64,000 nt of DNA. Source: Eledone cirrhosa (Eukaryota). Below the pieces are notes generated by a model that saw only the letters and a list, made by a program, of their open reading frames with translations, had not been told where the DNA came from and did not search any database. Position numbers and translations under genes: made by a program. Of this stretch, positions 13,810 to 27,995 are shown in pieces (the stretch's first letter is position 1; each line of letters begins with the position of its first letter). The stretch lies in contig OZ024740.1 in assembly GCA_964016885.1 (NCBI GenBank), positions 377,766,001 to 377,830,000 on the forward strand, given 5' to 3'.

Positions 13810-15548
13810 AGTATCTTATAGAATACATTGATAGGAATTTCCATAACACACATAGCTCTACACGAAATCAAGGAATACGTACAGGGGGACTAAAATACAA
13901 GCGCACACACACAGTACTACCAGACATACTAATAATAGAAAATCGCCACTAAATAAATCACGTTGTAGAAAGTATATCTGGTACAATCCTATTTTTAATG
14001 CCTCGATTAGTACAAAACTATCTCTTTCATTCTTTAAGTTAATCAACAAACATTTCCCTAGTTCCCATAAATACAGCAAAATTCTGAACTCTAAAACTAT
14101 TAGACTATCATACTCCACGGCACCAAACCTTGAAGCATACATAAAAAAAACTTAATTTAAGGCAATTAAACAACTCTACAAAACAAAACATTTTAGTAAC
14201 AGATGGGCAGAACGTAATATCTGCCTCCCAACCACTAAATGGGAGACGGGTATTACACAATCCACCTGTACCGCTATCACAACCTATCCATGGTATACCC
14301 GCTACCCACAACAAAGAATGTAACTGCCATCTACCTGAAAGATGTCCATTGAAGAATGAATGCCTAAAGTCCAACATTGTTTACCAATGCACGGTTGAAT
14401 CGAACGACCAGAAATGGTATTATATCGGATCTACCACCACCTCGTTTAAATCTCGCTGGTACCGTCATCGATTCTCAATCAAACATCCTAATCACCGTTT
14501 TGTGACCACGCTCGCCAACAAGACCTGGCAACTCCGTGAACGCAACCAACAGTTCATCTTAAAATGGGATATACTTTCCAGCGCAAGTGCATATCGGAGT
14601 GAATTGAAAAACTGCAGGTTATGTAACCTTGAACTCTTTTACATATTAAAATCCAAAAACAAACTACTCAACGATAGAATTGAACGATCATTATACTGCA
14701 ACCACAAACTAAAAGCTAAATTCTCTCACTATAAAATAACTTAACATTCGAACACGTAACTATAACATCGCTTTCTAGCTAACCACCCTCTCTTCCCCTC
14801 ACACTACAAGACAATACACTGCTTATCACTATAAATGGTAACTCAGTGCAATTCACAGATTACTACTACAAACCCAAAGTTCACTCACCACATAAACTTC
14901 GTCTGTCCCCTCTCTACCTCTCTCTCTACATCCATTACACTCTCTCTCTCTCTCTCGCCTTTGGCCTACCTCCCTCTCCACATCTATGAACCTGCCCTCT
15001 GGGGCAATAAATAATTCCGACCTTAACTATCAACGCATCTCTCCAAAAGTAACCAGTATAATAAAACCCCTACCATAACATTTTGATTAAGATATCTACA
15101 AACCACTCTCTCCTACTTCTCCAACCCCTGCATATCTTTCTCTCTCTCTCCCTCTCCCCTACTTTTCTCTCTTCCTTTTCTACTCTATCTTCCCCCAACA
15201 ACCCCACTTAAGGGTATTTACATTGTACATTTTACCATTCTGCTCTGAGGATACAGTGGTCACAGCATTGGATATTTGAGTTCTGCAAATTCTTGTAAAT
15301 TTGCACATAGCATAACTAGGCTGTAGTACCACCGTGGAAACATTTGTAAGCACACGGAATAAATTACCTTTTTATGATGTCAACCTGTTATTATTCATTC
15401 TTTATATACACTCCGGAATACAGAAGGATCAGGAACTAAGTTTCTTCAACAATTCTTCCATAACTCGTAGAGTAACCTCTCACCGTACGTCAAGCATATC
15501 CAGTGTAGTAATTAACCATTACTACATCTTGGGTAATCCTATACCTAA
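13810..15548 (+). mobile_element. Penelope-like element B, 5'-truncated (linker + GIY-YIG + 3' pLTR with HHR)
   Basis: RKYIWYNPIFN...KTIRLSYS and CNCHLPERCPLKNEC are homologous to PLE-A; ORF 14349-14744 has IVYQC...WYYIGST, CRLCNLE, CNH; ends in (TA)n. Confidence 0.9.
15241..15352 (+). ncRNA. Type I hammerhead ribozyme in the PLE-B pLTR
   Basis: Helix I TGCT/AGCA; CTGAGGA 15245-51; helix II TACAGTGGT/ACCACCGTG with long structured loop; GAAA 15337-40; helix III ACATTTGT; GUA at 15346-48. Confidence 0.8.
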
Positions 15549-15885
15549 TATATATATATATACACACACATATATATATATATATATATATATATATATA
15601 TATATATATATATATATATATATATATATATATATATATATATACATATATATATATATATACATATATATATATATACACATATATATATATATATATA
15701 TATATACATATATATATATATATATACATATATACATATATATATATAGAGAGAGATACATATATATATATATATATATATATATATATATATATATATA
15801 TATACATATATATATATATATATATATATATATATATATATATATATATATATATATATATATATATATATATATACATATATAT

Positions 15886-16448
15886 GGCATCTCGAATTAG
15901 TACCATTGAACCACATGTATTATAAACAACTTGAATATTTCTACAGGTACATTGTACCTGTTGAAGTATCCATCCACTTTTATAATTTTTCTCCTTGTGT
16001 AGAGAACAAAACGTTGAATAATGCTGCTAATTTTAGTGGCAATATCAACATGTTTATAATATACAGCTAATATCAGCGACCTGATTTTGCGTGTGTGTCA
16101 TTTTAACGGCTTGACCGCATGCGTTGGGCAGGGAGCAAAATATTTACTTGCTATGGGGTTTGCAACCTTATGGCGTGGAAGGAGGCTGTCTGAAGATTTA
16201 TTTATTTCCATTGGAAATTCGTCGGATTTTCAATCTTTCGGAATCATGAAACCGTCGGTAACAGCGTCTGAACAGGTGATTGTTTAATCCTTTTTTAATT
16301 TATTTAGAGAATTGTTTAATAACCGCTTGCTTCGCTATTTTTTATATTGTTCTGGCATCTCGAATTAGTGCCATTGAACCACATGTATTATAAACAACTT
16401 GAATATTTCTACAAGTACATTGTACCTGTTGAGGTATTCATCCACTTC
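15886..16448 (+). mobile_element. Non-coding retrozyme-like unit (468-bp period, ~95-bp terminal direct repeat)
   Basis: GGCATCTCGAATTAG...CATCCACTT at 15886 and 16354; contains an HHR; (TA)n on both sides. Confidence 0.75.
16185..16265 (+). ncRNA. Type I hammerhead ribozyme
   Basis: Helix I GCTGT/ACAGC; CTGAAGA 16190-96; GAAA 16248-51; helix III ACCGTCGGT; GUA at 16258-60; helix II weak. Confidence 0.78.
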
Positions 16449-16695
16449 TATATATATATATATATATATATATATATACATATATATATATATATATATA
16501 TATATATATATATATATATATATATATATATATATATATATATATATATATATATATATATATATATACATATATATATATATATATATATACATATATA
16601 TATATATATATATATATATATATATATATATATATATATATATATATATATATATATACACACATATATATATATACACATATATATATATACAT

Positions 16696-17306
16696 TTAAT
16701 TTTGATTCATTTTAATTGTATATTAATTTTGATTTATTTTGAAAAATTGGTTGAATTTTACTTGTTCTGCTTATCTTGATATTAAGTTCTGGTATATCAA
16801 ATTATTACCATAGAACCACCTTAAATCATAGACACACTATATATTTCCGGGGGTACATTGTACCCTCAGATATATATTAACCTTATTCAATATTCTCCAG
16901 TATGTAGAGAAAAATCCTGTCGTTCTATTTAGTTGCTAAAAATCTTTTTTGGTAACGATCATAGACGGCTAGTCTACGATTTCCCGCCTTCACTATACAC
17001 CAACGTATTTATGGGTCACTTTCACGACCTTTCAGACCTGTATTAGTTGGAGTGAGGTCATATATTTTGTCGTTCCTGGGGTTTTTAACCCTAGGATAGG
17101 AAAATGCTTCTCTGATGATCTTTGCTTTTCCATTAATATCCACGTGATATCTAATGTTTTGCAACATGAAACTGTACAGTTAGGGCCATTTGAATAGGTA
17201 AATATTTATATTATATTTTTTAATTTTGATTAATTTTAATTGTATATTAATTTTGATTTATTTTGAAAAATTGGTTGAATTTTACTTGTTCTGCTTATCT
17301 TGATAT
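16696..17306 (+). mobile_element. Non-coding retrozyme-like unit (524-bp period, ~85-bp terminal direct repeat)
   Basis: GAAAAATTGGTTGAATTTTACTTGTTCTGCTTATCTTGATAT at 16741 and 17265; contains an HHR; (TA)n flanks. Confidence 0.75.
17108..17185 (+). ncRNA. Type I hammerhead ribozyme
   Basis: Helix I TTCT/AGGG (two G-U pairs); CTGATGA 17112-18; TTGC/GCAA in helix II; GAAA 17168-71; perfect palindrome ACTGTACAGT; GUU triplet. Confidence 0.72.
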
Positions 17307-17841
17307 ATATATACATATATACATATATATATATATATATATATATATATATATACATATATATATATACACATATATACATATATATATATATATATAT
17401 ATACATATATATATATACACATATATATATATATATATATATATATATATATATATATATATATATATATATATATATATATACACACACACATATATAT
17501 ATATATATATATATATATATATATATATATATATATATATATATATATATATAAAGAGAAAACATGCTGACTACAATTATAACAGGAAGAAGGTAATGTT
17601 CTGCTGTAGTAGTATTTTGAAATGTTCTTGGATTTAGGTTCATTTGTTGAGAGTCAAGGGTGAGGAAGTTGTGTTGACAGCAGCTGAGAAGGGATATATT
17701 TATGGGTTGATAAGGTACTTACAGACATTACTGTGGTATAGAATTAAGAAGGCTAGAATGTACTTAATGATTATATTTCTGTGGTGGTTCGTGCAGTATA
17801 GTGGGTATCCTAAGTTGAAAGCTAAGTTACGTCGGTTCGAT

Positions 17842-26516: not shown

Positions 26517-26578
26517 TTTTGTCTGAAGAGGGCATACCATATTTTTAATATGATATCCCTGAAATATATATAATGAAA
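26517..26578 (+). ncRNA. Type I hammerhead motif, right arm of fold-back element
   Basis: TTTTGT-CTGAAGA-GGGCATACCATATTTTTAATATGATATCCCT-GAAA-TATATAT-A-ATGAAA; palindromic ATATATAT; AUA triplet. Confidence 0.68.
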
Positions 26579-27461
26579 TAAATATGGTTTTATAAATGTA
26601 GTTTCCATTTGTTTAATATCGTAAATATACTCCAAAACTTGTTGAGTGCTTTTATATCAGTTATAAAATATTTACTCGTTGTAACCCAACAATTTTAAAT
26701 AAAACTTTTGCATATATATATATATATGTGTGTGTGTGTGTGTGTGTGTGTGTGTGTGTGTGTGTGTGTGTGTAGTGATAGAGAACATTGTAGTGACCTA
26801 CGTTCCGCGGGCTCACATACATTCTCTGTGCGTGATTTGGCTCAGCTCAGCCAATCAGCGCCAGCAGAAGAGAATGTATCCCAACGCGCCCTGAGAGACG
26901 AATTCCCCGCGAGGATTTGAAGAATCAGCCTCTCGCATCCTGAACTTCAAAGGAACAACATGTAACGGTGAGATTTTGCACTTTGGCCTGCAGGCCTGGC
27001 ACAATGGCACATTCCTTTTGTAACCTTTTTTAGATTGAACTACAATCATATCATTTAACTTTGTGCCACAACAAATAAACATACTTTTCATCTCACGAAC
27101 ATTCTTCTTGTTGACGTTGTTATCAAGTTACTCGTTTGTCGATATGACTAACACATCTTTCTACCAAACGGATTACTCGTGGCGTTATAACAATTACATT
27201 ATTTCCTTCACAACACATTAAAAAAATCATCCTGTTATAATTTCATCCTGTTATAAAATCATCCTGTTATAAGAAAGACGGTGTTATGGTTTTATTGGTA
27301 CATCCCTATTTTATTCGTTATACGTATTTAGAGGATGTAAGGTAGTTATATAATCACTGACTTAACCATTCTCTTCAGACAAACATACAATCCTATGTGT
27401 ATTGGTCGACGAAGTGAATAACACGTCCGACTGTAACATATCAATGGAGTTTTACATCGCG

Positions 27462-27531
27462 TTTGTCTGAAGAGAACGCGTAAGGCAATTATTATATAAC
27501 TACCTTACATCTTTAAAATACGTATAACGAA
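27462..27531 (+). ncRNA. Degenerate hammerhead motif (GAAA mutated to AAAA); inverted copy at 27314-27384
   Basis: TTTGT-CTGAAGA...GTAAGG/CCTTAC...AAAA-TACGTAT-A-ACGAA; palindromic ATACGTAT. Confidence 0.55.
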
Positions 27532-27940
27532 TACGAATAAAACCGTCTTATTTATTGTAATAAAACTCCGGATGATTAAAAACGTGGAGTGCTTCACGTA
27601 TGTTAAAGAATAAGTCGGCAGATTTTTAAACAACTAATTGTCTTCAATTGAATATATATATAGAGAGAGAGAGAGATTTTGAGTTTATGTTGGTTGTATA
27701 CCACCACCTCAGTATGCAGGCTGAAGCACTCGACGAAGTGCGCAGGTTGGTTTGGTTACTCCGGAGTAGTGTAAAATAAAGTTAAATAAAAGTCAAATGA
27801 TTAAAATTTAGCTTCGTTTATTACTATGACTCCAGTTCCTCAGTGAATTAACAACCCAACAAGGAACTGGGCATATCAGAGTATTGACAATATTATACAC
27901 CTAAACAACATATGTACTTGTCTATACCATAGTAATTCAA

Positions 27941-27995
27941 ACTGCCTGAAGAGGTCACAGCCAAAGATGGCTGTCACTGAAATATATATAGCAGT
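27941..27995 (+). ncRNA. Type I hammerhead ribozyme
   Basis: ACTGC-CTGAAGA-GGTCACAGCCAAAGATGGCTGTCACT-GAAA-TATATAT-A-GCAGT; perfect 5-bp helix I; ACAGCCA/TGGCTGT in helix II. Confidence 0.82.

Follow-up and report, generated by a model that had tools for sequence, protein, structure and literature searches.

In a 64,000-nt window of the Eledone cirrhosa genome (assembly GCA_964016885.1, 3.0 Gb in 1796 contigs; contig OZ024740.1, positions 377,766,001 to 377,830,000, indexed here as G000:C1:377766001-377830000), hammerhead ribozyme (HHR) motifs lie among (TA)n arrays, Penelope-like elements (PLEs) of the Hydra type and non-coding tandem repeats. Eight motif families, each with CUGANGA, GAAA and NUH cores and helices I–III, are present where a preliminary description of this DNA had placed them, as both direct reading and descriptor searches confirm; C3 of the core lies at 15245 (family A, +), 16190 (B, +), 17112 (C, +), 21787 (D, −), 22225 (E, −), 24741 (F, −), 26523 (G, +; copies at 24127, −, and 26379, −) and 27946 (H, +). 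The cleavage sites predicted after 15348, 16260 and 27990 are likewise correctly positioned, and within the window A, D, E, F, G and H have the type I core and a three-helix junction with open helix I. A strict descriptor recovered seven cores in 15141–28100 (A, D, F, three of G, and H) compared to a mean of 0.007 (maximum 1) in 300 block-wise and 300 global dinucleotide shuffles, while a scored descriptor recovered eight (E added) compared to a maximum of 0–1 in 100 shuffles per threshold; motif density thus lies far above that of shuffled sequence, the check that had been proposed. Neither descriptor recovers B or C in the window, because the base of helix II is a rare variant there (found in 1 of 66 B copies and in 1 of the 41 C copies listed), and family copies pass (63 B and 29 C hits). 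A scan of the window with Rfam (E≤1) matched no hammerhead model and returned only simple-repeat miRNA noise and tRNA-like short interspersed element (SINE) hits. Folding by minimum free energy did not discriminate the motifs, with no significant stability except for H (z −2.5; other motifs −1.7 to +0.9). A ninth family, missed earlier, occupies the end of a further element, X (21166..21265, +; second copy at 12401, −), and combines a CCGAUGA core variant with a long helix II and a ACAAUUGU helix III. The families are not all unrelated in sequence, as had been thought, because B is homologous to C (62% over the whole unit, E 1e-27) and D to F (~61% over 290–370 bp).

Clean links to open reading frames (ORFs) identify the A, G and H motifs as 3′ pseudo-long terminal repeat (pLTR) ends of predicted coding Hydra-type PLEs rather than as the parasites for which all families had been taken, and E is probably a PLE pLTR end as well. 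Genome searches scored 39–40 candidates per query and fetched the best-scoring 25–30 loci; insertion end points are given relative to the predicted cleavage site, the direct end being partly set by the queries and the inverted end independent of them. The A copy (13815..15547, +) reads as a 5′-truncated Hydra-type PLE with a reverse transcriptase (RT) thumb, a GIY-YIG domain (Pfam match, E 2e-4), a pyrimidine-rich 3′ untranslated region (UTR) and a pLTR with the HHR at 15245–15348, and is 96.6% identical to locus L223, where two A pLTRs surround a 747-codon open frame with RT and GIY-YIG. G occurs twice, as inverted and direct pLTR fragments at 24029..24411 (HHR at 24127, −) and at 26281..26713, where the inverted arm ends at +57 (HHR at 26379, −) and the direct arm at +141 (HHR at 26523, +); locus L213 carries a 399-codon open frame with RT thumb and endonuclease (EN) 1.3–1.5 kb upstream of a G pLTR. 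H (27677..28046) has an inverted arm ending at +150 and a direct arm ending at +56, with its HHR at 27946–27990 (+); at L211 two H pLTRs lie 3514 bp apart around RT and EN frames, and an RT frame is also found in L222. E is a short 5′-truncated end (22171..22236, −; HHR 22225–22187) with end points at +16..29 and +84..95; a pyrimidine-rich region precedes a few copies, no tandem was seen in 47 hits, and no clean ORF link was found. First-look candidates numbered 529 and 2284 for E, 2043 for G and 967 for H.

X, a Hydra-type PLE that hosts other insertions (12072..21327, −), consists of a direct arm on the minus strand (20452 to 17554 and 12891 to 12072) and an inverted arm on the plus strand (20451–21327), the arms being 98.2% identical between 12243–12891 and 21324–20676 and 98.5% between 17554–17753 and 20650–20451. 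Its reading frame (20205–17851) is broken by frameshifts and matches the A protein at 46–66% (tblastn). RWK and DKT motifs are found in the RT of A, H and X; A, G, H and X have a CxCX5C linker and CxxC and CxH motifs around conserved E and N, with no CCHH. The HHR lies in the pLTR, and 3′ ends fall at TA-type repeats in 20 of 23 A, 24 of 25 G and 8 of 11 H copies. We also observed that A, G, H, E and X each have a short word, ACTCC, ACTCT or ACTGC, behind their first end point (window positions 15409, 26630, 27770–27765 and the 12240 region, and for E in L245); it is possibly an RT recognition signal, and none was found at the end points of B, C, D and F.

The 3′ UTR microsatellite of X measures 25 bp in the inverted arm and 4.7 kb at the same spot of the direct arm, and A, B and C sit between (TA)n arrays inside this expansion, an arrangement that bears out the proposal of a shared (TA)n target at which insertions accumulate. 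The 35 bp before A (13780–13814) repeat the first 35 bp of B (15886–15920); read as a target duplication, this suggests that A likely inserted after B, next to it. Across 60 evenly spaced 10-kb stretches (600 kb), 44 HHRs in 21 clusters were found (0–5 per stretch) compared to 0–1 after shuffling. Forty of the 44 have a (TA)5+ tract no more than 300 nt downstream, compared to 18.9% of random positions, so the suspected enrichment beside (TA)n is general. Scaled from this sample, the genome would hold ~2.2×10^5 motifs (bootstrap 1.3–3.2×10^5), and 46 clusters were distinguished in the 1.58 Mb of genome sequence examined. The field in the window is dense, as had been described, with seven HHRs in its best 10 kb; as sampled stretches reach five, it is the upper tail of a genome-wide pattern and not a special locus.

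B, C, D and F belong to two superfamilies (B/C and D/F) of visibly AT-rich, non-coding, partial-tandem repeats of 430–525 bp. The earlier notion of many independent non-coding families therefore holds insofar as these four are high-copy non-coding repeats, but they reduce to two lineages. B (15886..16447, +) is a 1.2-mer of a 457–468 bp unit with the HHR at 16190–16260 and end points at +86 and +191 (1699 first-look candidates, 39 scored; arrays reach ~6 units). C (16695..17302, +) is a 1.2-mer of a 524 bp unit with the HHR at 17112–17181 and end points at +125 and +229..236 (1662 candidates; the 40 scored are 96–99% identical); loose (TA)n ends lie behind 16782 and 16893 in sequencing-run contigs. 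The three runs used come from one study, are of unrecorded kind and may derive from the sample of the assembly itself, and so carry no information on expression or cleavage. With one HHR each, the window copies of B and C could not release a monomer in cis. D (21586..21961, −) is part of a 439 bp unit with three octamer-like repeats, a U1/U2-like promoter box and the HHR at 21787–21754 (3002 candidates, 40 scored; partial tandems seen). F (24441..24881, −) spans about one 429–440 bp unit, with the HHR at 24741–24711, an octamer at 24829–24822, a TATAT box 46 nt before the HHR and end points near +168, +221 and +289 (2771 candidates, 40 scored). Head-to-tail periods are 457–468 (B), 524 (C), 439 (D) and 429 bp (F), with one type I HHR per unit. 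No PLE EN frame lies cleanly upstream of B, C, D or F copies, and no conserved long ORF was found in them; stop-free antisense stretches of 143–174 codons occur in 5 of 25 D loci. With tandem HHR pairs among their hits (32 pairs in 63 hits for B, 8 of 29 for C and 3 of 39 for F), B, C and F would class as non-LTR retrozymes, whereas D falls short of two tandem HHRs in this sample. Units diverge less within than between loci (0.9 vs 4.9% for B, 21 of 22 loci; 1.3 vs 2.3% for C, 23 of 28), as expected if one template species is copied for more than a unit, and among the units of B and C recurrent ordered differences were confined to the end point; this likeness is compatible with a circle and with a homogeneous multimer alike.

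The insertions of these repeats carry a distinctive footprint. While 5′ ends vary in all families (5′ truncation), 3′ ends are fixed at A +60/+199, G +57/+141, H +56/+150, E ~+28/+95, B +86/+191, C +125/+229..236 and F ~+168/+221/+289, with D ends at +167..191 and a weak second point at +143. Furthermore, inverted 5′ arms stop at the other fixed point in 6 of 8 A, 12 of 17 G, 6 of 6 H and 24 of 24 E rows, and likewise in 10 of 15 B rows (three being duplicated loci), 7 of 8 C and 11 of 16 F rows; four values of −1000 for G were set aside as alignment artefacts on an internal repeat. The 3′ end abuts a TA-type repeat in 25 of 25 B, 26 of 27 C, 20 of 24 D and 15 of 24 F copies, and most end points show short TA-like microhomology. 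In PLEs, the sequence between two internal RT start sites constitutes the PLE tail, a feature called unique to PLEs in the available part of Frangieh et al. (PMC11167929). Two-point ends with inverted truncated arms match this PLE-mobilized pattern clearly for B, C and F and weakly for D. For B, C and F the footprint is direct evidence for PLE mobilization, which was earlier proposed from co-occurrence and pLTR homology; the idea of PLE-driven mobilization is supported for the non-coding repeats, with PLE-type footprints at (TA)n for B, C, D and F, and not for A, G and H, which are themselves ends of coding PLEs, as E probably is.

We consider it highly probable that (TA)n-targeted insertions are nested in this region: three HHRs form the pLTR ends of coding Hydra-type PLEs, and the non-coding tandem retrozymes that hold another four are likely copied by the same PLE machinery. 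Under this model, the Hydra-type GIY-YIG endonuclease would nick (TA)n, and the PLE RT would start at one of two or three internal sites 60–290 nt downstream of the HHR cleavage site and copy through one or more intact HHR junctions. The template would thus be an RNA longer than one unit, present as an uncleaved multimer or as a ligated circle. Where a transcript holds two HHRs, these may pair via the palindromic helix III and release a monomer, and D-type units would likely supply their own promoter, of small nuclear RNA (snRNA) type, just upstream of the HHR. Since (TA)n flanks each insertion, we propose that the site stays a target, so that copies pile up.

Several observations weigh against this model. 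The loci sample is biased to young full-length copies; D shows no locus with two tandem HHRs among 25 hits, and its inverted arms are scattered (6 of 16 near +143..148), giving a poor two-end pattern. B, C, D and F share no sequence with the A, E, G, H and X ends, few of the genome's PLE families having been sampled, and we therefore name no partner family; a GTACATTGTAC hairpin shared by A, B and C was rejected as a partner link because its place relative to the HHR differs. The 10.1–11.1 pair is U.G in A, U.U in B, C, E and F, A.A in D and G.U in G and H (G-C is present in some other HHR families of the sampled sequence), and what is available of PMC4209133 describes a G10.1-C11.1 pair as conserved in PLE HHRs and the in vitro activity of metazoan PLE HHRs as low. 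Of nine predicted retrozyme dimers from Xenopus, one cleaved (bioRxiv 10.64898/2026.07.22.740005, in its available part), and HHR cleavage was not required for insertion by an Anolis PLE in vitro, the HHR of this element being described as dispensable and protein-dependent (PMC11167929).

These last results raise the alternative that the motifs are HHR-shaped but no longer catalytic, acting as protein-binding or folding signals in the PLE ribonucleoprotein particle on a template that is always uncleaved. We regard this as unlikely but a serious contender. The low activity of metazoan PLE HHRs and the dispensable Anolis HHR fit it, as does the lack of a pile-up of 5′ ends at the predicted cleavage site (3 of 27 C ends within 6 nt). 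Speaking for retained function, core nucleotides, NUH and a self-complementary helix III are kept across the 46 clusters, 34 of which have a palindromic inner helix III segment. Helix III is self-complementary in 30 of 41 sampled hits compared to 10% of 30 null hits with helix III unscored, which makes the palindromic helix III of the preliminary description real and general. The compensatory changes it had asked for were seen in the B/C superfamily, in which 92.9% of helix cells are paired and 8 of 20 pairs show double changes; this test covers five sequences, with the structure drawn from those same sequences, and 0–1 of 500 shuffles scored as high. Helix II of G-like motifs also varies around an invariant core (not counted toward covariation). 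Dimeric PLE HHRs are reportedly the subject of work by Lunse in 2017. Self-complementary helix III and the B/C double changes fit the dimer model set out in the available portion of PMC4209133. Loss of catalysis concerns the cleavage step only, and can coexist with PLE mobilization.

A further feature of D and F is a candidate promoter. The octamer ATGCAAAT precedes the HHR in 24 of 25 D and 33 of 38 F hits, compared to 0–1 in A, E, G and H. In D the predicted snRNA-type promoter (21830..21880, −) combines this octamer with a TCAGT box 76 nt and a TATAT box 47 nt before the HHR core. Three host U6 loci carry TATGC(A/T)AAT(G/T)AG near −80 and TATA at −30; the 12-mer context of the octamer in the repeats is common to all three, and in D, F and five relatives the octamer lies 34–37 nt before a TATA-like box (38–40 in U6), a spacing that places the predicted start 16–27 nt before the HHR core. 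Within the 600 kb sample, three of five U6-type 12-mers are followed by CUGANGA (1.3% by chance). In host U1 and U2, TCAGT lies at −56 to −58 and is followed near −31 by a TATAT-like box; a distal motif of the (T/G)ACCTCCCTT type, located at about −255 to −290, belongs to the layout of host U1, U2 and U6 (L321–L390). A position weight matrix (PWM) trained on nine host U1/U2 promoters scored D at a median of 15.4 (background p 0.0007, or ~0.03 over 45 clusters), with the best position at −76/−77 in 21 of 25 copies; p was 0.17 for F, 0.28 for C, 0.59 for B and 0.024 for a 310-bp tandem family. We judge an snRNA-type promoter likely in D and, by homology to D, plausible in F; since the PWM kept only D, no promoter is claimed for B or C. 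A hand-tuned TCAG-N-TATAT pattern matching C, D and F was discarded, having been chosen after these were seen, and avoidance of RNA polymerase (Pol) III T-runs (suggestive in 5 of 6 octamer clusters and in 7 of the 40 remaining ones) was not used as support, the clusters being related and the background high.

Other sampled repeats bear related elements. In a 310–312 bp HHR tandem family (L094, L177, L038, L248), the 3′ strand of helix I equals the distal U1/U6 motif TTACTTCCCTT, so placed that the next HHR core follows 277 nt later; a weaker box of U1/U2 type lies at −77. Octamer-TATA-HHR families laid out like D and F were seen at L184, L198, L250, L292, L304, L215, L087 and L234, L215 having the octamer and TATA boxes without an intact HHR core.

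It is conceivable, although we lean somewhat against it, that D/F-type retrozymes are self-transcribing RNA circles with a captured host snRNA promoter: the promoter would fire 16–27 nt before the HHR, dimeric cleavage would give a unit-length RNA holding the next promoter, and the Hydra PLE RT would copy the ligated circle from fixed internal points. Because snRNA promoters lie upstream of the start, they are normally not retrotransposable; the D/F design, if true, would escape this, and the genome, with ~2×10^5 motifs in dozens of families, would offer a natural system in which to read the template of a PLE passenger (circle or multimer) and the RT recognition signal.

Two other origins of the non-coding repeats deserve mention. 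B, C, D and F might be orphan pLTRs of unsampled coding PLEs, with tandems arising from truncated insertions and local duplication and no independent RNA mobilized, which we hold to be improbable. Coding PLEs in this DNA commonly leave short HHR ends, as A, G, H and E illustrate, birth of tandems from a pLTR followed by unequal crossover is proposed by Li et al. (bioRxiv 10.64898/2026.07.22.740005), and only the best 25–30 loci per family were read; yet every long copy of B, C, D and F that was read is preceded by the end of another unit and in no case by an ORF or pyrimidine-rich UTR. The same full unit moreover recurs at dispersed loci on many contigs, and arrays keep the fixed 3′ end and 5′ inversion. 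About as improbable is a SINE-like origin through a long interspersed element (LINE) or another non-PLE RT favouring (TA)n, with the HHR as passenger, a view compatible with the lack of sequence in common with a PLE partner, with the promoter-like boxes of D and F, with the position of their distal end, which resembles Pol III SINEs in lying close to the first T-run that follows the predicted start, and with the 5′ truncation and inversion that occur with LINEs too. The T-run point is weak, as an equal distance to TTTT is seen for 31–40% of random positions, and two or three fixed internal end points in opposite arms, more-than-unit copies and the lack of a poly-A tail match PLEs as described in the available text of PMC11167929.

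Beyond these families, a pyrimidine-rich, PLE-like 3′ UTR at 24882–25680 (−), with a decayed HHR with long helix III at its end, abuts the 5′ end of F. Inverted-arm fragments adjoining (TA)n at 27300–27545, 23224–23330 and 25686–26214 are probably decayed ends of other PLE families, and at L218:2450-4039 (−) a 530-codon PLE frame of a different type, with a cysteine pair inside the GIY-YIG core, starts at a (TA)n run. The window also contains two 98% identical tRNA-like units 283 bp apart at 28213–28664 (Rfam tRNA, 38 bits), likely a tRNA-derived SINE; a Ty3/Gypsy-type LTR retrotransposon at 29837–33511 (+), the 918-codon open frame of which covers RT, RNase H and integrase; and an interstitial telomere-like (ACCCTA)n array at 53370–53463 (15 copies, 72% matches).

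Two open questions are touched by these families: the identity of the enzyme that mobilizes retrozymes in animals, and the reason for the presence of hammerheads in PLEs. From one genome they offer footprint evidence, exact predicted RT starts, young copies (C, 96–99%) and coding Hydra-type elements, which together make PLE mobilization accessible to the in vitro PLE assay already published. At one HHR motif every ~14 kb, repeat annotation of such genomes misses a large class. The promoter match, if real, would explain retrozyme transcription and extend the arrangement of newt satellite 2, the promoter of which is reportedly the subject of work by Coats in 1994, to an invertebrate.

The retrozyme class and the PLE hypothesis are already published: the available parts of the respective papers treat PLEs as candidate drivers of retrozymes (Cervera and de la Pena 2020, PMC7229834) and retrozymes as non-autonomous PLE derivatives (Li, Clavereau and Pollet 2026, bioRxiv 10.64898/2026.07.22.740005). 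A term search of these partial texts found no mention of cephalopods, and the word ribozyme is absent from the available part of an Octopus vulgaris repeat paper. Our literature search, made mainly in open-access sources and without Repbase or preprint supplements, returned nothing on these families, their promoter, PLE tails in retrozymes or HHRs in cephalopod genomes; the tail footprint on retrozymes, the families and their promoter were accordingly not found in print.

Compared to animal non-LTR retrozymes as characterized in the available portions of these sources, B, C, D and F are similar in consisting of non-coding units, each a few hundred bp long and bearing a type I HHR, that are arranged head to tail, range from monomers to multimers and coexist with PLEs. 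They differ in their footprint, which shows two RT start points, inverted 5′ arms and ends strictly at (TA)n, whereas published support is co-occurrence and pLTR homology, and in having no homology found to a PLE end; they are known here from DNA alone. The estimate of ~2×10^5 HHRs compares with 4,000–9,000 in coelacanth and Xenopus and 126,247 in axolotl in the accessible part of PMC7229834, the descriptors being different. Like published PLE HHRs, the motifs have a short palindromic helix III and a long helix II, with many families per genome, and are mostly single motifs from truncated PLEs or opposite-strand pairs 100–700 bp apart; unlike them, they often replace G10.1-C11.1 with U.U, A.A or G.U.

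Hydra-clade PLEs target (TA)n, and molluscan members have been reported (Craig et al. 2021, PMC8557442). A, G, H and X resemble them in the C-terminal GIY-YIG, the linker and cysteine motifs and the absence of a cysteine pair inside the GIY-YIG core, a placement made by motifs, but the A (3.2 kb) and H (3.5 kb) units exceed the "generally <3 kb" given for the clade (PMC8557442). Non-autonomous Chlamys elements such as MRC1 are likewise non-coding PLE passengers with pLTRs, head-to-tail multimers and a microsatellite preference; these are mostly without HHRs and share 3′ sequence with their partner (PMC8557442), whereas HHRs are present in B, C, D and F, for which no partner match was found among the ends compared. 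Finally, newt satellite 2 and a schistosome HHR satellite also hold a promoter inside the HHR tandem unit, of snRNA type (Pol II) in the former and Pol III in the latter, as given in the available part of PMC2220036. D, with its promoter predicted from sequence, differs from both in that its box matches the proximal element of host U1/U2 and its octamer shares the 12-mer context of host U6.

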